The notes below the pieces were generated by a model, which did no database searches, was not told where the DNA came from, and was given only the letters and a program-made list of their open reading frames with translations. DNA of 64,000 bases from assembly GCA_020348345.1 (NCBI GenBank), contig CP070748.1:449210-513209 (forward strand), written 5' to 3'. This document shows positions 2,779 through 34,069 of this stretch, piece after piece; position 1 is the stretch's first letter, and every line of letters starts with the position of its first letter. The DNA is from Methanobacteriota archaeon. GTDB lineage: Archaea; Thermoplasmatota; Thermoplasmata; UBA10834. A program made the translations under genes and the position numbers.

Positions 2779-3603
2779 ATGCTGTCCCTCGTCAAATTGG
2801 TGAAAGGCGCCATTGCCCTCAACTGGAGGCAACTTCTCCTCGGCGCGCTATCTCTTGCCATTTTTGTCAGTGCTTGGCAGATGTATTCTTGGTATCTCAA
2901 CGCCAACGTATCTGGATATGCCGCCTACGTGCCATATCCAGGGGAAGTAGCTGAAGCGTTCGTAGATTCGTTCGTGACTCCGGCCGGAACTGACGGGCTT
3001 GTAATGTCGGATCACATCATCGCCAGCCTGAAGAGGATATTCATGGGGTTCGTGATCGCATTGTCGATAGCCGTTCCCGCGGGATTACTCATGGGCAGCT
3101 ACATTACTGCAGAGGGATTGGGGATGCCAATCGTGGAAATCTTCCGTCCCATACCTCCCCTGGCATGGATTCCACTGTTCCTTGTTGTTCTGGGCTATCT
3201 CAAAGGGCCTGCGGCGATAGTGTTCCTTGGGATATTCTTTCCGATTCTTTTTAATGTCATACTTGGAGTGAAGAGAGTCGATCCCATACTCATTGATGCA
3301 GCGAAGACCCTGGGTTCGAAGAAACGACACCTGTTTCTCAAGGTAGTTCTGCCCTATACGACGCCATACCTGATGACAGGCATCAAGGTGGGGCTTGGCA
3401 TTGGCTGGATGTGTATCGTGGCCGCGGAGATGGTTGGAAAGTATGGAGGTGGCGTTGGCTTCTACATCTGGGACAGAAGTGACATTGGACAGTGGGACTA
3501 TGTCTTCGCAGGCATCGCAATGATAGCCATTCTTGGAATACTGACAACTGGCGTAGCGAGCCAAGTCGAGAGGAGGTTGTACGCTTGGATGGGCATGAAG
3601 TAG
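2779..3603 (+). CDS. ABC transporter permease (SsuC/TauC/NitT family)
   Basis: Polytopic membrane protein with a BPD-transporter EAA-like loop (AAKTLGSKKRHLFLKVVLPYTTPYL). Confidence 0.8.
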   Translation: MLSLVKLVKGAIALNWRQLLLGALSLAIFVSAWQMYSWYLNANVSGYAAYVPYPGEVAEAFVDSFVTPAGTDGLVMSDHIIASLKRIFMGFVIALSIAVPAGLLMGSYITAEGLGMPIVEIFRPIPPLAWIPLFLVVLGYLKGPAAIVFLGIFFPILFNVILGVKRVDPILIDAAKTLGSKKRHLFLKVVLPYTTPYLMTGIKVGLGIGWMCIVAAEMVGKYGGGVGFYIWDRSDIGQWDYVFAGIAMIAILGILTTGVASQVERRLYAWMGMK

Positions 3604-3611
3604 ACATACGA

Positions 3612-4397
3612 ATGGAAGCCCTCCTCAAGGTGTTCAAGGAGGAGACCAGGGAAATCGTCGCCTTGAAAGAATTCAGTCTCGATGTCGGCGATGGTGAGTT
3701 CGTCTGCCTGCTGGGTCCATCGGGTTGCGGAAAGACGACCGTGCTAAGAATAGTGGCAGGTCTGGAGACGAAGAGTGGCGGCAGAGTCACAGTCAGCGGG
3801 GTGGAGGTCGAAGGTGCTGGGTCCAACAGAGGCGTCGTCTTCCAGGAATTCGCTTTATTCCCTTGGCGCACAGTCAGAAAGAACATCGAATTCGGCCTTG
3901 AGGTGAAGAAGATCCCTCCTCATGAGCGGGAGGCGGTCTCATCGACATTCATCGACCTGGTAAACCTGGAAGGTTTCGAGAACGCCCATCCTCATCAGCT
4001 CTCTGGGGGGATGAAGCAACGCGTAGGGATCGCTCGGGCGCTGGCGAATGACCCCGCGGTTCTGCTGATGGACGAGCCGTTCGGCGCTCTGGACGCTCAA
4101 ACCAGAAACCTCATGCAGAAGGAGCTGCTTCGCATCTGGTCCGCGACCAGGAAGACGATCCTGTTCGTGACGCACTCAGTAGACGAGGCCGTGTTCCTCG
4201 CGGACAGGATAGTGGTGATGACGGCAAGACCCGGGAAGGTGAAGAGGATCATACCTGTGGCCCTTCCTCGCCCCAGAGAGAGGACGAGTTCCGAGTTCAT
4301 CTCCATCCGTGGCGAGGTCCTTGAGGAGCTTGACGCAGAGTTCGCGAAGACCATGATGCGAGAGATGACCGACGCTTCTGTGCAGCACAAGGCTTAA
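3612..4397 (+). CDS. ABC transporter ATP-binding protein (SsuB/TauB-like)
   Basis: Walker A GPSGCGKTT, signature LSGGMKQRV, Walker B LLMDEPFGALD; start adjusted to the Met just after the permease stop. Confidence 0.85.
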   Translation: MEALLKVFKEETREIVALKEFSLDVGDGEFVCLLGPSGCGKTTVLRIVAGLETKSGGRVTVSGVEVEGAGSNRGVVFQEFALFPWRTVRKNIEFGLEVKKIPPHEREAVSSTFIDLVNLEGFENAHPHQLSGGMKQRVGIARALANDPAVLLMDEPFGALDAQTRNLMQKELLRIWSATRKTILFVTHSVDEAVFLADRIVVMTARPGKVKRIIPVALPRPRERTSSEFISIRGEVLEELDAEFAKTMMREMTDASVQHKA

Positions 4398-4411: not shown

Positions 4412-4903
4412 ATGCAGAAATTCATGAGCTTCGAGCTAAATGTTGTCAGCAACACTCCATTGACGCCATTGAGCGACATCGAGGAAGTCGCAATACTCTT
4501 CCTCAACCAGATAGGATACTTCCCAAAGGGCTACGATCCCAAGACTGAAGCGACTGATATTCGCGACAGTCCTCCGTACAGGCTGATGGTGGACCACTTC
4601 CTGAAGCGGCCGGAGAAAGTCTGGGTGGTTGAAGATCTGGCAGCTTCACTTGGGACGACCAAAGCGACGGTCTACAGACACATAAACAAGCTGAAGGGGT
4701 TTGACTTGTTGGAGGAAGCCAGTGTGGACCGGCCAGGCGGATCCACGAAGAAGGGATACCGCATTAGATATGGTGACCTCAGCAAGGCCTGGAACTTCAC
4801 TGAGGCGCACGTGCAAGTGGCGATGGAGAACTACAGGAAGACGGTCGATCACATACAGGAGCTTGTTGCGAAGAAGGGGGGTAGGCATGCCAAAAAGAGA
4901 TGA
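4412..4903 (+). CDS. Hypothetical protein with a probable winged-helix DNA-binding domain
   Basis: wHTH-like segment (LAASLGTTKATVYRHINKLKGFDLLEE); no recognisable catalytic motif. Confidence 0.35.
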   Translation: MQKFMSFELNVVSNTPLTPLSDIEEVAILFLNQIGYFPKGYDPKTEATDIRDSPPYRLMVDHFLKRPEKVWVVEDLAASLGTTKATVYRHINKLKGFDLLEEASVDRPGGSTKKGYRIRYGDLSKAWNFTEAHVQVAMENYRKTVDHIQELVAKKGGRHAKKR

Positions 4904-5171
4904 CGCAATCATCTTGACTGAAGGGTCAGAATACAGAATCAAGAGCCTGGAGGCCAGAGACAAACCGATGGAGACCACCGGCGTATTCAAGGGATATGCC
5001 GCTATCGCTCACGACACAGCAATCGTGATGGAGATCAAATCTCCGGTGGGCGAGCACAAGACGATGCTGAGATTGATTCCATCCCACATGATTACTTCGA
5101 TTGACGTCCTGAAGGCGAAGAAGGAGAAGAAGGACAAGAGTCAGGAAGGAGACACCGTCTACTTCGGTTGA
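4887..5171 (+). CDS. Small hypothetical protein
   Basis: ORF begins MPKRDD; Lys-rich C-terminus; no recognisable family. Confidence 0.3.
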   Translation: MPKRDDAIILTEGSEYRIKSLEARDKPMETTGVFKGYAAIAHDTAIVMEIKSPVGEHKTMLRLIPSHMITSIDVLKAKKEKKDKSQEGDTVYFG

Positions 5172-5464
5172 GAATGGCGCATCAGATGAAAGTCAACCTG
5201 AACACAATGGAAGCGCGTGTGATTGCATTGTTGAGGAGGCGCTATCCGATAACGACCGACGAACTCAGGAAAGAACTGTCAGTCAGACGTGATACACTCG
5301 ATAGGGTGCTGAAGAGGCTTGCTGCAAAGGGCGTTCTCATTCTCGAGCCGTTGCCCGACAAGACGTATGTACGGCTTCTGCTTCCCGGTGTGGAACCAGC
5401 TGCGGAGCCTTCGATTGAAAGAAGTGACAAGGATGGTGATGACGATTCCATCGCATACCGTTAA
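5168..5464 (+). CDS. Small winged-helix (MarR/TrmB-like) protein
   Basis: ARVIALLRRRYPITTDELRKELSVRRDTLDRVLKRLAAKGVL wHTH pattern; acidic tail. Confidence 0.4.
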   Translation: MRMAHQMKVNLNTMEARVIALLRRRYPITTDELRKELSVRRDTLDRVLKRLAAKGVLILEPLPDKTYVRLLLPGVEPAAEPSIERSDKDGDDDSIAYR

Positions 5465-7076: not shown

Positions 7077-7096
7077 TGAACACCCGGCGGTATGAT

Positions 7097-7112
7097 TATA
7101 TGAAAAAACCCA
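7097..7112 (+). promoter_or_regulatory. Candidate archaeal BRE/TATA element upstream of the TPR gene pair
   Basis: GATTATATGAAAAAAC sits about 30 nt upstream of the TTG start at 7141, so the transcript would be leaderless or short-leader. Confidence 0.4.
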
Positions 7113-7140
7113 TATCGGTTTCCATCGGAGGAGACGCTGG

Positions 7141-9030
7141 TTGCCCTGTTTGAAGTGCGATGGCCAAAGCGAAGACGGCGCGCTCATGTGTGACGAGTGC
7201 GCCGACGCCTGCTATGGGGAACCAAGATTCTTCCTAACGCCAGTCCTTATAGGCCCGAGCCTATATGCGAGGCTGCGGTCCGTAGGCTCAGTCGCATACG
7301 TTCTAGGCCCCACGTCAGAAGGGGATTTGTCCTTGATGACGTCATCGGACATCAGGCGCACGCTTCAGGATGCCGTGTTGAGCGGACTGTCCGAGGAGGA
7401 GGTGCTGCACAACATCGACCTGTGCGATAAGACTCTGGCTCATATGGGCGTCCCGCTCAAGTACGACCCGTCGGCGATGCTTCTGACCGAGGACGCTGCG
7501 GATACAGTCATGACCGTACTCCAAATAGCAGAGGCCTTATTGAGGCAAGGAGGAGGCACCCCCTCGAGCGATCTCTGCCTGCGGCTCGGCGTTGTGTACT
7601 GGACCGCCTCACATGGCATTCTGCTTCGGACAGCCAGCCGCCGATGGAGGGACGAGAAGAAGATACATCTTGTCAACCTTTCCAAGGAGTACTTCCGGAT
7701 GGTCAGCGAGGATGATGATCTGCACTCGCTCGCCGTCTGGAATCTGGCTATGCTCTGCCTGGAGCTGAGGGATTGGAGCGAGGCCAAGGAGTATCTCACC
7801 CAGTCTCGAGTGCACTTCCCCAGCGACAACAGAATCGCAGAGGGGCTCGTCAGAGCGGAGCTGGAACTTGGTAACACCGTCGAAGCGTTGACTCTCGTGG
7901 ATGAGATACTTGTTCAGTCTGCGACGGCGCAGCTTTGGCTTCTCAAAGGAGAGATACTACTGAAGGTCAACAGAATGGAGGAGTCCCTCGAATGCTTCAA
8001 CCAGTCTCTCTCTCTTGACTCAGGATTGATCGACGCACATAACCGCCTGATCGCGGTCTTGAGGGCTTTGGGCAGAAATGAAGAGGCCGTTATGGCGGAG
8101 CGTCAGAGGACAATATCCAGGACTCCCGGCATAGAGGAGAAAGTCCTGGACATAATCGGAGAACTGACCAAAGCGCCGTCCCAGCCCGCCGCGGTAAGGG
8201 TGCGTGCTCGTCAGATGGCGCGTATCAAGAAGGTTCCGGCGGAGCCTGCCCCTGCCCCTGTGATTGCCGAGATGCCGCTCGATTTGGCGGCTGCCGCGTT
8301 GGAGGCTGGAGATTACGACCTCGCCATCCAGCGCTCCCGACATGCGATTGAGGCTGATCCAGGCTCAAGAGAGGCGAGCCTCATCCTCATTGAGGCCATG
8401 GTCGCTGTCGGAGATATTGCCGGTGCTTCGAAGAGCGTCCATTCGTTTTATGAGAGAAACAGGGATGATCCGCACGCTTGGTATTGGCGCGGCGTGGTGG
8501 CGGAGAAGGAGGGTAAATGGGGGGCAGCAGTTCAGTACTTCAGCAAGGCTGTGACTATTGATCCCGAACTTGCAGAGGCATGGGCCGCAATGGGCGACAC
8601 GCTGCTGGTGAACGACAAACTGAATGGCGCTGATGAGAGCTACTCGAGGGCGTTGCAGATCGATGCAGGAAATGCCAAAGCATGGCTCGGAAAAGGCAGG
8701 ACCATGCGCGCCCTCGGCAGATGGGGAGCGGCGATCCAGTGCTTGGACAAGTACAACTCCTTGATGCCGGACGACAAGGACGCATGGCTGTTGAAGGCCG
8801 ACACGCTCATGGACAAGGAGAAGTACCGCAGAGCCATCGACGCGTACAATAAGTATCTCGAACTCTACCAGGATGACTCGTATGCATTGGGGCGCAAGGG
8901 CGCCGCGTTGAACGCTCTGGGGATGGTGGATGAGGCTGTGGCCTGTCTCGAGGAGAGCGTGCGCCTTGACCCCGGTAACAGACAGGCGGTGAAGCTGCTC
9001 AGGTCGTTAACTGAAGGAGGCGGAGACTGA
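7141..9030 (+). CDS. Zinc-ribbon plus TPR-repeat protein
   Basis: N-terminal CxxC...CxxC (PCLKCDG...CDECADAC); C-terminal two thirds is a multiple-TPR pattern (W/LG/Y/A/F/A/P periodicity). Confidence 0.7.
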   Translation: MPCLKCDGQSEDGALMCDECADACYGEPRFFLTPVLIGPSLYARLRSVGSVAYVLGPTSEGDLSLMTSSDIRRTLQDAVLSGLSEEEVLHNIDLCDKTLAHMGVPLKYDPSAMLLTEDAADTVMTVLQIAEALLRQGGGTPSSDLCLRLGVVYWTASHGILLRTASRRWRDEKKIHLVNLSKEYFRMVSEDDDLHSLAVWNLAMLCLELRDWSEAKEYLTQSRVHFPSDNRIAEGLVRAELELGNTVEALTLVDEILVQSATAQLWLLKGEILLKVNRMEESLECFNQSLSLDSGLIDAHNRLIAVLRALGRNEEAVMAERQRTISRTPGIEEKVLDIIGELTKAPSQPAAVRVRARQMARIKKVPAEPAPAPVIAEMPLDLAAAALEAGDYDLAIQRSRHAIEADPGSREASLILIEAMVAVGDIAGASKSVHSFYERNRDDPHAWYWRGVVAEKEGKWGAAVQYFSKAVTIDPELAEAWAAMGDTLLVNDKLNGADESYSRALQIDAGNAKAWLGKGRTMRALGRWGAAIQCLDKYNSLMPDDKDAWLLKADTLMDKEKYRRAIDAYNKYLELYQDDSYALGRKGAALNALGMVDEAVACLEESVRLDPGNRQAVKLLRSLTEGGGD

Positions 9031-11636
9031 TGGTTGAGCTAGACCGCATCCTTAGCGAACGTTCCGATGAGCGAATTCTGTCTGCTGTGCGTTCCCTCTC
9101 CGCTTCAGGCTTTTCTAGGTTTGTGGAGCGAGTCCTTGGCTACCTCGATTTGACCATATCTAGAAGCCGAATCAAAGAGGATTTCGTCATTGCCGATTGT
9201 GTTCACAGACCGGACAGTCTGAAGTACGTGGTCTTCTTCTCGAGAAGGGACGAGAACGTGGCAAAGCAGTCCGTTGACAGTCTTGTGTCCTATATGGAGA
9301 AGGTTGAGGCTGTGAAGGGCTTGGTCCTTTCCTCCTCGCCGATACTGCCGGATGCTGTGAAGCTTGCTGAGATGCATGATGTGGGCGTAGCCGACGGTCC
9401 GAAGCTGGCCGCGCTCGTAAGGCGGTTCGATCTGGACAGAGACCTCATTCGAGAGGCAGAACTCTCCGGCAAGCGCGATGCGGAGCTGGCGAAGACTGGC
9501 CGTCTTGACGAATCGGCAGCTGCGGCCATGGCTGACGGATATGAGGCGCTATCCAACAAGGACTTCCTCAAAGCGCTTGAGAGCGTAGACCAGGCAATAC
9601 TATCCGACGATACCATCGACGCCGCGTGGCGTCTTAAAGGTGTAGTCCTCGATGAAATGGGCTATCACGAACAGGCCCTGGAGTGCTTCAGGCACGCGCT
9701 CGCAATAAGCAAGGGCAGTGATGAAACATGGTACGCACTCGCGAACTGTTTCTACTCCCTATCACGCCACGAGGAGGAGCTGAAATGCTACGACCGCGCT
9801 CTCGAAATCAATCCTCTCAATCTCAAGGCTCTCTTGAATAAAGGCGGCACTCTTCACAGGCTAGGCAGATACCAAGAGGCACTAGATGCGTATGACGAAG
9901 TGCTGAGGAGAAACTACCGGCTCGAGAAGGTACATAACAACCGAGGAGTGACTCTCCACAAGCTCGGTCGGCCCAAGGAGTCGCTCGAAGCCTATGACCG
10001 AGCCATCGCCCTGCGTCACGACTACGTCGAGGCAATAATGAACAAGGCCAACCTCCTCTTCGAGCTTGGGAACGATGATGAAGCGCTCAGCTCCTATTCT
10101 CACGTCACTGAGATTCGCCCTGACATGCCACTTGCCTGGCGGTCGAAGGGACTGGTGGCTTTGAAGATGGGCAAGCGATCGGCTGCCACAAGGGCCTTCG
10201 AGGAGGCTCTCAGGCTAGACGCCGGCGACGTCGAGGCCAAGAGGGCCCTTGATGAGCTTGGGAAAGAGCCGAAGGAGGACCTCGTTGAGACCACAGGATT
10301 TCTCGAGGAGATATTCGCCCCTGATGCCGAGGCCCCGCCTGCAGAGACAGCCGCAGAGCCAACGCAGCCATTGCCTCCAGAGGAGGTTATCACGAGTATC
10401 GAGGAGGAGACGCTTGAACAGATTGCAGAGGAGCTGTACGGCGACCGCGCGGAGTTGCTGCTGTTGTTGGGCCGTCTCGACGAAGCCTACGATTATCTGA
10501 TCAGATCGCTCAGACTCGAGGGAGAGAATTCGCGACTGCTGACCGCTGCCGGGAGCGTGCTGTTTCGACAGGGCAAGCATGAAGCAGCGATAAAGACCTA
10601 CGAGCACGCATACACGGCGGATAGAAGCTACTCACCGGCTCTGTACAACCTTCACATGGCTCTGATGGTTGCGGGCGAGAGTGAGCTGGCTGCGAAGGTG
10701 AGCCAGTCTCTAAGGGAGTCATCGCGTGGATGGCAGGGGAGGGCGGCTTCCGCAATAGAGGCGATGAAACGGAAGGACTATCGTCAGGCAATCGAGGACA
10801 CGGAGGTCGCTATGGCAGCTGAGAACCTATCCACATTGCGCAACTTCAGAGGTGTACTTCAGCTTGTATCGGATGACGTCGATGGCGCTTCGGAGACCTT
10901 CACGCAGCTCACTGCAGACACCTTCGATAGGTCTGAAGCCCACAACAACCTTGGGTCCGCGATACTCAAGAAGGGCGATTGGGAGGGCGCGGGAGCAGAG
11001 TTCGACAAGGCAATGCGACTTCGCAAGGGTAACCCCACCGCCTGGAACAACAGGGGTTGTGTGCTTTACAAGGAAGACCGACTCAGAGAAGCGATAGCCT
11101 GCTTCGAGGAGTCTCTGGTAATCAATCCTACCGCCGTCGCAATGGGGAACAAGGGATTCACCCAGCTTATGATTGACATGCTCGATGATGCGATAAGATC
11201 ATTCGAACAATCGCTGAAGATCTTGGAGACTCCTGAGGCGTTCAACAACAAGGGAATTGCACTTCTGCGTTCAGGGCGCGTGGACGCAGCAGTCGTCGCT
11301 TTCAGAGAAGCGCTCAGACTGTCTCCTCAGTTTGAGGATGCTAACGCCAATCTGCGGAGCGCGCTGTCCGCCCAGTCGTTAAGACAGAGAGAGGTGATGG
11401 AGACTCCGCCTCCTCCTCCACCTCCGCCGCCCTCCAGAAGCATGAAATCTGACAGCGACCGAGCCAAGATGCAGCTGCTTCGCCACGAAAGCGAGAAGAC
11501 TCTGAAGAAGAAGAAGAAATCCGAGCTGGAAGCTATTTGCATAGCCCTCGATAAGAGCTCGCGAGGCACTAAGAAGGAGCTCGTTGCGCGCATCCTTAAG
11601 GAGAAGAGGCGTCTGCTCAGGAAGAGCCGCCTGTGA
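9030..11636 (+). CDS. Mrr-like (restriction-endonuclease fold, probably inactive) N-terminal domain, long TPR array, poly-Pro linker and C-terminal SAP-like motif
   Basis: N-terminal FVERVLGYLDLTI...EDFVIADCV...VVFFSRRDE resembles the Mrr_cat core, but the (E/Q)xK position reads RRD. More than 10 TPR units follow. PPPPPPPPP at about 11400-11430. C-terminal KSELEAICIALDKSSRGTKKELVARILKE resembles a SAP bihelical motif. The start overlaps the stop of 7141..9030 (ATGA). Confidence 0.6.
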   Translation: MVELDRILSERSDERILSAVRSLSASGFSRFVERVLGYLDLTISRSRIKEDFVIADCVHRPDSLKYVVFFSRRDENVAKQSVDSLVSYMEKVEAVKGLVLSSSPILPDAVKLAEMHDVGVADGPKLAALVRRFDLDRDLIREAELSGKRDAELAKTGRLDESAAAAMADGYEALSNKDFLKALESVDQAILSDDTIDAAWRLKGVVLDEMGYHEQALECFRHALAISKGSDETWYALANCFYSLSRHEEELKCYDRALEINPLNLKALLNKGGTLHRLGRYQEALDAYDEVLRRNYRLEKVHNNRGVTLHKLGRPKESLEAYDRAIALRHDYVEAIMNKANLLFELGNDDEALSSYSHVTEIRPDMPLAWRSKGLVALKMGKRSAATRAFEEALRLDAGDVEAKRALDELGKEPKEDLVETTGFLEEIFAPDAEAPPAETAAEPTQPLPPEEVITSIEEETLEQIAEELYGDRAELLLLLGRLDEAYDYLIRSLRLEGENSRLLTAAGSVLFRQGKHEAAIKTYEHAYTADRSYSPALYNLHMALMVAGESELAAKVSQSLRESSRGWQGRAASAIEAMKRKDYRQAIEDTEVAMAAENLSTLRNFRGVLQLVSDDVDGASETFTQLTADTFDRSEAHNNLGSAILKKGDWEGAGAEFDKAMRLRKGNPTAWNNRGCVLYKEDRLREAIACFEESLVINPTAVAMGNKGFTQLMIDMLDDAIRSFEQSLKILETPEAFNNKGIALLRSGRVDAAVVAFREALRLSPQFEDANANLRSALSAQSLRQREVMETPPPPPPPPPSRSMKSDSDRAKMQLLRHESEKTLKKKKKSELEAICIALDKSSRGTKKELVARILKEKRRLLRKSRL

Positions 11637-11664: not shown

Positions 11665-11910
11665 CTATGCTATGTTCATCACGACAACGTCTCGAACTGC
11701 CCTCATCTCACTGAAAGGTAACACAAGTCTTCCGTCTGAGTCCGTCTTGAACAACCTCGGCTCGATCTCCTCGGCCGGGATGACGAGCACGTTTTGAAGC
11801 TCGCCGGTCTTTGTGTCAATCAAGAAATTCTCTATCATGCCGAGTATCTGGCCATCATTGGTCATCACTGTCTTGCCCTTCAGCTCGGTAATGAATTTGC
11901 GCATGGTCAT
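11665..11910 (-). CDS. PRC-barrel domain protein
   Basis: LKGKTVMTNDGQILGMIENFLIDTKTGELQNVLV pattern typical of archaeal PRC-barrel proteins; lies immediately downstream of cdc48. Confidence 0.5.
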   Translation of the reverse strand: MTMRKFITELKGKTVMTNDGQILGMIENFLIDTKTGELQNVLVIPAEEIEPRLFKTDSDGRLVLPFSEMRAVRDVVVMNIA

Positions 11911-11922
11911 CCCATCTCCAGA

Positions 11923-14145
11923 CTACCTGTAGTAGCCAAGGCCGTTATCATCTTTGGCCCTCTTAGACATTGCGGTCGTCATCTCCTGGACAAGATTCTC
12001 GTATATCTTCGCGGTCTCCTTGTCAGTTGAAGCTCTTACGAGCTTCATAGCCTCCTCGAAATGCTTCTTCTTGACAGTCTTCGCGTTCCTGTCCTCGCGG
12101 AGGGACAGCATCGCGGCTTCCCGACAGAGATTCTCGATATCTGCACCCACATATCCTTCCAACCTTCTAGCAAGGTCCTTCAAATCCACATCTTTGAGTG
12201 GCATATCACTGGTGTGTACCTGCAGGATCTTCAGTCTGGTCGCCTCGTCAGGAAGAGGTGTCAGCAGCAGCTTGTCGAACCTCCCAGGGCGAAGCAGCGC
12301 TCTGTCCAGGATGTCCGGGCGATTTGTGGCAGCAATGACGAACACCCCGCTGAGCGAATCCAGTCCGTCCATCGACGTCAGAAGCTGGTTGACAACTCTC
12401 TCGGTCGCGCCGGAGTCGAAATGGCTTCCTCTTCTAGGTGCAATCGCGTCGATCTCATCAAGGAACACTATCGATGGAGCGACCTGTTTTGCCTTCTTGA
12501 AGATCATTCGTATCGCCTTCTCGCTCTCGCCGACCCATTTTGACATTATCTCAGGACCCTTGATTGAGATGAAGTTGGCCTTCGATTCGTTCGCGACCGC
12601 TCGCGCAATCAGCGTCTTACCCGTCCCAGGCGCTCCGAACAGGAGCACGCCGCTCGGCGGCTGGATTCCCATCCTCGAGAAGGCCTCAGGATCCTCGAGA
12701 GGCTTCTCAATAGCCTCGTTGAGAGCCTCCTTCACGCTCTCCAGCCCTCCCACGTCTTCCCAAGTGACCTTGGGTATTTCGACCGATACCTCGCGCATAG
12801 CACTCGGCTCTATCTCTCTGAGAGCGTCCGTGAAATCCTGCGCGGTCACGCGCATCTTCTCCAGAATATCCGTTGGTATTGGCTTGCCGAACTCAATATC
12901 TGGAAGGTACCGTCTCAGCGCCCGCATCGCACTCTCTCTTGACAATGCCGCCAAATCAGCGCCCACGAATCCGTGCGTCATGTCTGCAATCTTGTCCAGC
13001 TTGACACTATGATCGAGAGGCATGCCTCGGGTGTGTATCATCAGAATCTCGAGCCTTCCTTCCGCTGTGGGAACACCGATCTCGATCTCCCTGTCGAATC
13101 TTCCTGGCCTGCGCAATGCAGGGTCTATTGCACCCTCTCGATTCGTCGCAGCGATTACTATCACGTTGCCTCTCGACGTGAGTCCATCCATCAGAGTCAG
13201 CAATTGGGCAACAACTCGTCGTTCAACCTCGCCCTGGACTTCGTCTCGTTTCGGTGCGATTGAGTCGATCTCATCGATGAATATAACGGAGGGCGCATTC
13301 TTCTCCGCCTCTGAGAACATCTCACGCAACCGTTCCTCGCTCTGCCCATAGAATTTGGACATGATCTCCGGGCCTTGAATGGCGTGGAAGTTCGCACCTG
13401 CCTCGTTCGCAACCGCTCGCGCAATGAGGGTCTTCCCTGTTCCAGGCGAACCGTAAAGGAGTATGCCCTTTGGAGGATCTATCCCCAGCCTGGAGAATAT
13501 CTCAGGGTGTTTCAGGGGCAGTTCAATCATCTCTCTTATTCTCAGGAGCTCTCCCTCGAGGCCACCCACATCCTCGTAGGTGACAGATGGCCTGGTGAGT
13601 TCGGTGACTTCAACAGGTTCCGTGCGCACCGATAGCTCGGTGAAATCACCTATCTGTACGATGCCGCTGGGCGTGGTAGATGCGACGACAAATGGCAGGA
13701 ATCCGCCCATAAGCGCTATGTTGGGTATGATGATCTCATCACCCTTTACGATTGCTCTGTTGAGCAGCCCCTTCTTGAAGAGCCCCTCGACTCCTTGGCC
13801 GAATCGGACCCTCTTTCCATGTGGTATCTTCGGGGCTACCACGACCTTCTTCGCGGCGTGAGCATCAGCCTTCCTGACCGCGACCTTCTCGCCGATTGAT
13901 ACGCCGGCGTTCCCTCGAATCATTCCGTCGATACGGACTATGCTCTTCCTCTCGTCCTCATGAGCGGCTCTGAAGACCTTGGCCGCAGTCCGCTTCTTAC
14001 CGATTATCTCAATTATGTCTCCGACGTCTATGTTCAGGGTCTTTCTCGTGTCAGAGTCTATTCTCGCACGTCCCAGGCCGACTTCGGACTGGTGGTGTGC
14101 ACGCGCGACCTTCAACGTTACCGCGTCCGTAGGCTTTCGTGTCAT
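11923..14145 (-). CDS. cdc48: CDC48/VCP-like AAA+ ATPase (two AAA domains)
   Basis: Two Walker A ([16 protein letters not shown]), two Walker B ([18 protein letters not shown]) and SRH regions; N-terminal double-psi barrel region. Confidence 0.95.
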
Positions 14146-31833: not shown

Positions 31834-31933
31834 TGCTCCCGCCGGGATTTGAACCCGGGTATCGAGCTTTCACCGGCATCCTATTGAACGCCACGAGAGG
31901 CTCGAATGATTGGCCGGACTACACTACGGGAGC
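31834..31933 (-). tRNA. tRNA-Glu (anticodon CUC) with a roughly 25 nt intron at the canonical 37/38 position
   Basis: Acceptor GCTCCCG/CGGGAGC; D-arm GTGTAGTCCGGCCAATCAT, typical of archaeal tRNA-Glu; T-arm CCGGGTTCAAATCCCGG; anticodon stem CGAGC/GCTCG enclosing 32 nt; TATA-like TTTATGTAA about 30 nt upstream. Confidence 0.7.
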
Positions 31934-33957: not shown

Positions 33958-34069
33958 GCTGAGGTGGCCCAGCCCGGTAAGGCGCGAGCCTGGAGTCTTG
34001 TTGAAGAATCAAGCCCGCTAGCTCGTGGCGCTTTGCGCCTCGGGAGTTCGAATCTCCCCCTCAGCGCCA
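33958..34069 (+). tRNA. tRNA-Ser (anticodon GGA) with a roughly 24 nt intron and a long variable arm; CCA encoded
   Basis: Acceptor GCTGAGG/CCTCAGC; discriminator G; T-arm GGGAGTTCGAATCTCCC; anticodon stem CGAGC/GCTCG enclosing 31 nt; variable arm GGCGC/GCGCC; TATA TTCTTAAATA about 30 nt upstream. Confidence 0.8.

Follow-up and report, generated by a model that had tools for sequence, protein, structure and literature searches.

A translationally coupled pair of tetratricopeptide repeat proteins with an apparently inactivated restriction endonuclease fold in Thermoplasmatota

What might two adjacent genes for long tetratricopeptide repeat (TPR) proteins do, when one of the products starts with a nuclease-like domain and ends with a motif resembling a nucleic acid-binding domain? 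The question is raised by a locus in the genome of an archaeon of the class Thermoplasmata (GTDB phylum Thermoplasmatota, UBA10834; NCBI assembly GCA_020348345.1). The window analyzed here is a 64,000-nucleotide (nt) stretch of contig CP070748.1 (positions 449,210 to 513,209 of the forward strand; all coordinates below are window coordinates unless a distant locus is named), and the two open reading frames (ORFs) in question are denoted ORF1 and ORF2. A first-pass annotation had presented them as an operonic pair of “giant” TPR proteins, a label that is generous for products of 629 and 868 amino acids (aa), and had proposed that they constitute either a chromatin- or DNA-associated assembly platform or a defense-related sensor. 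We found that the two genes are retained together across Thermoplasmatota, with an invariant stop/start overlap in the clade of the window, that the catalytic positions of the nuclease-like domain are replaced, and that relatives carry either of two unrelated nucleic acid-binding modules at the same C-terminal position. The reading that we favor, with moderate confidence, is that the pair forms a housekeeping, non-enzymatic, heteromeric TPR scaffold of Thermoplasmatota that would bind peptides and be tethered to nucleic acid.

Conservation and translational coupling of the ORF1-ORF2 pair

More than 120 orthologs were found for each gene (48-100% identity for ORF1, including a 629-aa database entry, P0288, that is 100% identical; 49-95% identity for full-length orthologs of ORF2), so that both are real genes rather than chance ORFs. 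The same holds for the start of ORF1, because the position is aligned as TTG, GTG, or ATG in 39 orthologous loci, with a GGAGG-type box 8-10 nt upstream, and because the identical database entry is of the same length. In a clade scan with one genome per GTDB species, full-length ORF2 orthologs with ORF1 alongside were identified in 42 species-level loci (50-69% identity), all of them in metagenome-assembled genomes of Thermoplasmata/Thermoplasmatota; the next matches were unrelated TPR proteins with similarity in the repeats only. By this distribution, the pair is a vertically inherited, single-locus core module of Thermoplasmatota.

In 39 of the 39 orthologous loci, the two genes share a T(G/A)ATG stop/start overlap of 1 nt preceded by a GGAGG-like box. 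The translational coupling proposed in the first-pass annotation was thus borne out, with TGATG at the junction in place of the ATGA that had been reported. The invariance of this overlap at a protein identity of only ~50% is strong evidence of termination-reinitiation coupling and a fixed stoichiometry of the products. Upstream of ORF1, an ATTATA-type box is present at the matching offset in 36 of the 36 aligned orthologous loci (TATGATTATAT in the window and small variants elsewhere). Judging from this conservation and from the archaeal TATA consensus, the box probably acts as a promoter, and the pair very probably has a promoter of its own and is not simply the tail of the operon of the upstream gene, Elp3. 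Given the conserved box between Elp3 and ORF1, a joint Elp3-ORF1-ORF2 operon was rejected. A semi-conserved element, ccATATCGG, is located downstream of the TATGATTATAT box, near the expected transcription start.

Domain architecture of the two proteins

The N-terminal domain of ORF2 matched the Pfam family Mrr_cat (PF04471; aa 21-129) with a score of 31.6 bits, against a cutoff of 21. AlphaFold2 (AF2) modeling of aa 1-172, with 30 orthologs as input, yielded a mean predicted local distance difference test (pLDDT) score of 89.5, and the Foldseek matches of this model in the PDB included MspJI (E = 8e-6), the N-terminal domain of RPB5, which was among the best structural matches (1dzf and 5xog_E; E ~2e-5), EcoT38I, AspBHI, and the archaeal AF1548. 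The sequence profile of the domain retrieved nothing significant from the PDB; the fold matches came via the predicted structure. On the strength of this model, the restriction endonuclease (REase) fold suggested by the first-pass annotation is confirmed. To map the catalytic positions, the domain was aligned with canonical Mrr_cat domains that a profile search had retrieved from among 1.84 billion representatives. The Glu of the “FE” helix corresponds to S29 of ORF2, the catalytic Asp of “GxD” to I54, and (E/Q)xK to F69-F70-S71; the RRD that had been assigned to the (E/Q)xK site is therefore misplaced by two to three residues. The loss of the four catalytic positions (helix Glu, Asp, Glu/Gln, and Lys, replaced at S29, I54, F69, and S71) is consistent across the orthologs. 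The Arg that follows the catalytic Lys is retained as the invariant R72 and, together with the conserved acidic D/E56 and the invariant H59 and Y66, remains near the former active site. Thus, the nuclease fold of ORF2 appears to be inactivated, as the first-pass annotation had anticipated. Pfam detected neither Mrr_N nor VRR_nuc in ORF1 or ORF2; the Mrr-type domain is N-terminal in ORF2, which lacks the features of type IV Mrr enzymes, namely, Mrr_N, an active C-terminal Mrr_cat domain, and a patchy, mobile distribution.

The remainder of ORF2 consists largely of two TPR arrays (TPR_1, E = 1e-67, 10 stretches; at least 11 TPR_2 units, in line with the more than 10 repeats initially counted), in both of which an invariant Asn recurs with a period of ~34 aa. 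Such an Asn ladder is the mode by which TPR superhelices of the OGT type bind extended peptides. Conservation is ~62% in the structured domains vs ~30% in the linkers. The PPPPPPPPP linker singled out in the first-pass annotation is present in the window copy and in close relatives only; elsewhere in the family, its place is taken by a variable Pro-rich linker. For the C-terminal motif, described previously as SAP-like, the Pfam SAP model (PF02037) matched 30 of 31 orthologs at E ≤ 0.01 (best E = 7e-9), and the family profile matched the SAP structures of DEK (2jx3; E = 1.4e-5) and Hcc-1 (2do1), so that its assignment as a genuine SAP domain, resting on profile comparison, can be considered solid. 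The last 53 aa of ORF2, which end in the tail KEKRRLLRKSRL, have a net charge of +12 and a pI of 10.6; the net charge of the whole protein is -19.

ORF1 is a Zn-ribbon-TPR protein, as initially described. The four Cys residues of its N-terminal ribbon (C3, C6, C17, and C20) show no variation among 26 aligned sequences or across the 39 loci, the pLDDT of the ribbon is ~84, and metal binding is predicted; none of the Pfam zinc-ribbon models passed the threshold on the window copy, and the ORF1-type partners from Methanomassiliicoccales gave weak matches to DZR_2. The ribbon is followed by a segment with 16 invariant or near-invariant residues (F30, F31, L32, P34, L36, G38, S40, R44, L45, R46, G49, S50, A52, L55, G56, and P57). 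Although this segment is among the most conserved parts of the protein, the pLDDT drops below 50 for aa 35-68, a combination that would be typical of partner-induced folding. No significant PDB match was obtained with the sequence profile of the ORF1 N-terminus, and Foldseek comparison of the ORF1 model yielded only weak TPR-like matches; aa 71-225 were therefore classed as degenerate TPR, and aa 29-70 were taken to be unstructured. A search of a 5.8-billion-protein collection with aa 1-200 alone produced no match, though the full-length query found orthologs. The Pfam matches to TPR families in ORF1 have E values of 1e-35 to 3e-35, and the G(K/R)WGxAxQ signature in its C-terminal array is shared with the 994-aa partner protein of a distant relative (31% identity, E = 6e-28).

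Table 1. Features of the ORF1-ORF2 locus in window coordinates
Feature	Coordinates	Strand	Protein positions	Description
Promoter-like box TATGATTATAT	7091..7101	+		Archaeal, B recognition element (BRE)/TATA-like; ~40 nt upstream of ORF1 start
Shine-Dalgarno-like box	7127..7131	+		GGAGG, 9 nt before ORF1 start codon; GGAGG/GGGGG at the equivalent site in orthologous loci
ORF1	7141..9030	+	629 aa	TTG start; Zn-ribbon and TPR partner protein
Cys4 zinc ribbon/knuckle	7141..7215	+	ORF1 aa 1-25	C3-x2-C6-x10-C17-x2-C20
Conserved segment	7225..7350	+	ORF1 aa 29-70	FFLxPxLxGxS...RLR..GS.A..LGP; candidate docking peptide
All-helical TPR-like region, then first canonical TPRs	7351..8145	+	ORF1 aa 71-335	AF2 helices at aa 71-224; TPR_8/TPR_12 at aa 262-314
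Pro/Ala-rich basic linker	8146..8295	+	ORF1 aa 336-385	7 Pro, pI 9.7
C-terminal TPR array	8296..9027	+	ORF1 aa 386-629	G(K/R)WGxAxQ signature; Pfam
Coupling junction	9016..9032	+		GGAGG (9016-9020), N7, TGATG; stop TGA 9028-9030, start ATG 9030-9032, 1-nt overlap
ORF2	9030..11636	+	868 aa	ATG start; inactivated REase-like domain (iREase), TPR array 1, acidic linker, TPR array 2, Pro linker, SAP, basic tail
Mrr_cat-type REase fold	9030..9434	+	ORF2 aa 1-135	Catalytic positions all replaced; Pfam, AF2, Foldseek
TPR array 1	9555..10265	+	ORF2 aa 176-412	Approximate bounds; invariant Asn ladder N270/N304/N338
Acidic, Pro-rich variable linker	10266..10433	+	ORF2 aa 413-468	Net charge -17; mean column conservation 0.32
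TPR array 2	10434..11399	+	ORF2 aa 469-790	Approximate bounds; invariant Asn ladder N605/N640/N674/N707/N739/N774
Nine consecutive prolines	11406..11432	+	ORF2 aa 793-801	Within poorly conserved Pro-rich linker
SAP (helix-extension-helix) domain	11502..11600	+	ORF2 aa 825-857	Pfam and profile evidence
Basic tail KEKRRLLRKSRL	11601..11633	+	ORF2 aa 858-868	

Distant relatives and genomic context

A profile search with the N-terminal domain of ORF2 revealed a wider family of long proteins in which an Mrr-like domain at the N-terminus is followed by a conserved linker and TPR arrays; the source organisms, where named, are Thermoplasmata, Methanomassiliicoccales, or “Euryarchaeota archaeon.” The catalytic motifs show graded decay across this family, and one short, distant relative (P0126) matches the Pfam family NA-iREase1 (PF22722; 28.1 bits). 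Several members contain internal zinc ribbons. The C-termini differ among lineages: P0129 ends in a SAP domain; P0125, P0132, P0143, P0151, P0174, and P0197 have a helix-hairpin-helix domain (HhH2/HHH_5) at the position of SAP; P0134 has a zinc ribbon; and the Methanomassiliicoccales-type proteins P0131, P0133, P0135, P0138, P0140, and P0150 have no tail and end right after the last TPR. In P0134 (1468 aa; L087, 7001-11407), approximately five tandem Ig-like repeats of ~95 aa each are inserted between two TPR arrays.

The pairing with ORF1 extends to these relatives. In nine of nine distant loci, the iREase-TPR gene is immediately preceded by a gene whose product matches the profile of the ORF1 N-terminus (E = 3e-30 to 1e-5); the two genes mostly overlap or lie within ~10 nt of each other (57 nt apart in L086), and an N-terminal CxxC...CxxC ribbon is present in six of the eight complete distant partners. 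One of these loci, L083, additionally contains near the pair a separate gene for a 565-aa protein (12293-13990, minus strand) with a double zinc ribbon, HHH_5, and TPRs, which has the look of a paralogous mini-version.

Within the clade of the window, gene order is collinear with the window in every sufficiently long locus, over a block of ~10 kb that consists of an ABC ATPase, three small helix-turn-helix (HTH) genes, Elp3, ORF1, ORF2, a PRC-barrel protein, CDC48, and POR. According to the Pfam assignments in the window, Elp3 is located directly upstream of ORF1 on the same strand, as first annotated, and the PRC-barrel and CDC48 genes are located downstream on the opposite strand, convergent with ORF2. 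In three Methanomassiliicoccales-type loci, Elp3 is on one side of the pair and PRC/CDC48 on the other; in the P0129 lineage, the PRC-barrel gene and CDC48 adjoin the pair; and in five more distant lineages, there is no Elp3 near the pair. In L083, the pair is flanked by deoxyhypusine synthase and an ArcS-like gene. The flanking genes thus vary by lineage, which indicates that the conserved unit is the pair itself.

Several neighbors merit mention in their own right. The PRC-barrel gene (11665-11910, minus strand; 81 aa) is extremely constrained: its product retains 86-100% identity between species whose ORF2 sequences are only 50-69% identical, and it stays beside the pair even in the Methanomassiliicoccales-type loci. 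The three small genes upstream of Elp3 (4412-5464, plus strand) encode a 163-aa HTH_20 protein, a ~94-aa ORF that probably starts near 4887, and a 98-aa MarR/TrmB-like HTH protein, and their order is kept as far as Methanomassiliicoccales; the mechanically called ORF 4701-5171, which overlaps 4412-4903, is probably over-extended at its 5′ end. In L081, a short tubulin-family gene (2787-3722; 311 aa) is found just upstream of the pair, with MtrA/MtrH-like genes downstream. In L084 (10461-13307) and L086 (10537-11391), one to three paralogous Arf/Ras/Roc-like small GTPase genes, coding for ~280-aa proteins with a conserved C-terminal extension, follow the iREase-TPR-HhH gene at ~30 nt on the same strand. 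Neither the window nor the clade loci contain counterparts of the small GTPase and tubulin genes found in the distant loci.

Farther along the window, Rfam identified two tRNA genes of 100 and 109 nt (31834-31933, minus strand, and 33958-34066, plus strand) that ARAGORN missed and that presumably contain introns. Intron-bearing tRNAs, together with orthologs that all derive from Thermoplasmata/Thermoplasmatota genomes, mark the window as archaeal. From 40000 to 64000, G+C content rises to 0.59, with both GC and AT skew negative from ~40 kb to the window end; this shift points either to many consecutive genes on the minus strand or to a block that differs in composition.

Possible functions and resemblance to known systems

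We infer that ORF1 and ORF2 are two subunits of a heterodimer that would be transcribed from its own promoter, with the conserved UGAUG termination-reinitiation junction setting a fixed ORF1:ORF2 stoichiometry. ORF2 would contribute two TPR superhelices, the Asn ladder on their concave faces binding extended peptides; candidate ligands are the conserved, unstructured aa 29-70 of ORF1 and/or client proteins. The dead Mrr-type domain would act as a docking or binding head rather than as a nuclease, and the SAP domain and the basic tail, on the flexible Pro-rich linker, would anchor the complex to nucleic acid, with chromosomal DNA as the most likely target. The strongest reason to place the complex on or beside nucleic acid, DNA being the simplest assumption, is that SAP and HhH2, which are unrelated DNA-binding modules, have both been recruited to this C-terminal position. 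Four observations weigh against a DNA-tethered scaffold. The Methanomassiliicoccales-type relatives have no SAP or HhH tail, which implies that a DNA tether is not essential to the core function of the family. With a charge-neutral iREase domain (pI 6.1) and acidic TPR arrays, the tail is the only part of ORF2 that resembles a DNA binder. RNA, too, can be bound by SAP and HhH domains. Finally, the SAP domain of the window copy scores 20.6-22.1 bits in Pfam, slightly below the gathering cutoff of 23.9. The DNA-associated assembly platform of the first-pass annotation is thus favored by the basic SAP tail and its exchange for HhH2, and disfavored by the tailless relatives and the neutral charge of the iREase domain.

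A more ambitious version of the scaffold model would make the pair the core of a hitherto unrecognized chromosome-tethered protein-docking machine throughout Thermoplasmatota, that is, a DNA-anchored, obligate TPR heterodimer that recruits lineage-specific partners (Arf/Ras-like GTPases, a tubulin-like protein, the PRC-barrel protein, CDC48, or Elp3) to the nucleoid. We regard this extension as doubtful. If true, it would provide an archaeal counterpart of the eukaryotic chromatin-bound TPR platforms, with a dead Mrr-type domain structurally akin to the eukaryote-specific jaw domain of RPB5.

The genomic neighbors suggest more specific roles. The pair could be a scaffold for cell division, chromosome positioning, or CDC48-dependent protein extraction, linking DNA to neighboring factors (the PRC-barrel protein, CDC48/VAT, the tubulin-like protein, and small GTPases). 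PRC-barrel proteins act in haloarchaeal cell division, and PRC-barrel and CDC48 genes adjoin the pair in the window clade, in the P0129 lineage, and in the Methanomassiliicoccales-type loci, with the tubulin-family gene upstream in L081 and the Arf/Ras-like GTPase genes downstream in L084 and L086. However, the PRC-barrel and CDC48 genes, being on the opposite strand and convergent with ORF2, are not co-transcribed with it, and each neighbor is lineage-specific, with none accompanying the pair everywhere; we therefore consider such a role unlikely. Still less probable, in our estimate, is an accessory scaffold for archaeal Elp3, with Elp3 docked on the TPR platform and tRNA bound at the SAP/HhH tail, by analogy with the Elp1/Elp2 scaffold of eukaryotic Elongator. 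This possibility is suggested by the presence of Elp3 as the immediately preceding, co-directional gene in the window, in all sufficiently long clade loci, and in the three Methanomassiliicoccales-type loci, by the ArcS-like tRNA-modification gene that comes after the pair in L083, by the RNA-binding capacity of SAP and HhH, and by the structure of Elp1, a helical-repeat scaffold with a basic tRNA-binding region. Nevertheless, the adjacency is part of the ~10-kb collinear block and hence not specific to Elp3, the conserved promoter box separates Elp3 from ORF1, and five distant lineages keep the pair with no Elp3 nearby. For the same reasons, the Elp3-TPR-TPR synteny posited by the first-pass annotation, which does hold throughout the clade and in Methanomassiliicoccales, lends no support to a functional link.

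The nuclease-like domain invites two further explanations. An active structure-specific or modification-dependent nuclease, either a type IV restriction enzyme resembling Mrr or a repair enzyme resembling FAN1, with SAP and TPR positioning the DNA, would be in keeping with the above-threshold Mrr_cat match, the catalytic domain of MspJI as the top structural match, the combination of SAP, TPR, and an REase fold in FAN1, and the presence of D/E56, H59, Y66, and R72 near the former active site. With S29, I54, F69, and S71 non-catalytic throughout the family, neither VRR_nuc nor Mrr_N detected, and the domain order opposite to that of FAN1, this explanation is very improbable, and the loss of the catalytic residues led us to reject an active nuclease. 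An anti-phage or conflict sensor, in which an inactive REase joins TPR repeats as in STAND/NACHT systems with NA-iREase, can draw on the NA-iREase1 match of P0126 and on the frequent use of TPR arrays as sensor modules in defense NTPases. We give it hardly any credence: Pfam found no NTPase, effector, or toxin domain in ORF1 or ORF2; the one PADLOC match, PDLC01101 (PrimPol), is weak, has zero matched stretches, falls into the TPR repeats, and is spurious; and a core, single-locus, vertically inherited pair found in 42 of 42 species loci with invariant housekeeping neighbors is the opposite of a patchy defense island. The defense-related sensor of the first-pass annotation is accordingly not supported, and a defense island was rejected on this distribution.

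A housekeeping scaffold remains our preferred interpretation. NCBIfam has no model for any part of ORF1 or ORF2, no curated family covering their N-termini was found, and neither the architecture nor the pair was described in the papers that literature searches retrieved, the combination of SAP and TPR leading to FAN1 only. The database names are merely “tetratricopeptide repeat protein,” and a 202-aa partial Thermoplasmata entry of the P0129 cluster, HUW43133.1, is named “restriction endonuclease,” a label that is misleading given the catalytic loss; the Mrr_cat match should not be read as a restriction enzyme. The component domains are all of known types, and a mechanistically unprecedented feature is not demonstrated. 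The cell biology of Thermoplasmatota, abundant archaea that are for the most part uncultured, is hardly known, and a phylum-wide, strictly paired and coupled set of large scaffold proteins with nucleic acid-binding ends would offer a handle on an uncharacterized housekeeping process, possibly chromosome organization or the recruitment of factors to DNA. The family also provides what seems to be a clean example of an REase fold turned into a non-catalytic module, and its tails indicate that SAP and HhH are used interchangeably in archaea.

Comparison with known systems delineates the peculiarities of the pair. ORF2 shares with the Mrr_cat/MspJI-type catalytic domains the fold, the whole-domain profile match, R72, and the C-terminal “LLRxFDL” helix, but not the helix Glu, Asp, Glu/Gln, or Lys; moreover, its domain is fused to TPR arrays rather than to a winged-helix or SRA-like DNA reader, and it is encoded by a core gene, not by a mobile restriction gene. 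Reuse of the REase fold without catalysis is common to ORF2, the N-terminal jaw domain of RPB5 in eukaryotic RNA polymerases, and NA-iREase1; ORF2, however, has no sequence-level relation to RPB5_N and is neither a polymerase subunit nor a STAND NTPase. The bihelical motif of ORF2, with its L..L....G..G.K..L..R pattern, resembles those of the SAP proteins DEK, Hcc-1/SARNP, Ku70, and PIAS, and the SAP domain of Ku70 likewise has basic flanks and a flexible linker. In contrast to these proteins, ORF2 is archaeal and its SAP domain is fused to TPR arrays, and related lineages replace SAP with HhH2 or lack a tail.

FAN1 (UBZ-SAP-TPR-VRR_nuc) engages DNA through its SAP, TPR, and nuclease domains acting together (PMC4201288), a precedent for cooperation of SAP, TPR, and an REase fold on DNA. 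All the respective domain types, including a zinc finger, are found in the pair, but the REase domain of ORF2 is of the Mrr_cat rather than the VRR_nuc family and apparently inactive, the domains are arranged in the reverse order, a different polypeptide carries the zinc ribbon, and there are at least 17 TPRs, compared with ~3-4 in FAN1, in acidic repeats. On these grounds (another REase family, inactivity, reversed order, and acidic repeats), FAN1 was rejected as a homolog and is best regarded as an analog only. The TPR domain of OGT and the Cdc16, Cdc23, and Cdc27 subunits of the anaphase-promoting complex/cyclosome (APC/C) offer a parallel to the repeats themselves, with long TPR superhelices, periodic concave-face Asn residues, and two TPR proteins made together. 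The pair differs from them in having neither a catalytic partner domain nor detectable orthology, the ANAPC3 matches being generic TPR, and ORF2 combines its superhelices with a nucleic acid-binding tail and an iREase head that OGT and APC/C lack.

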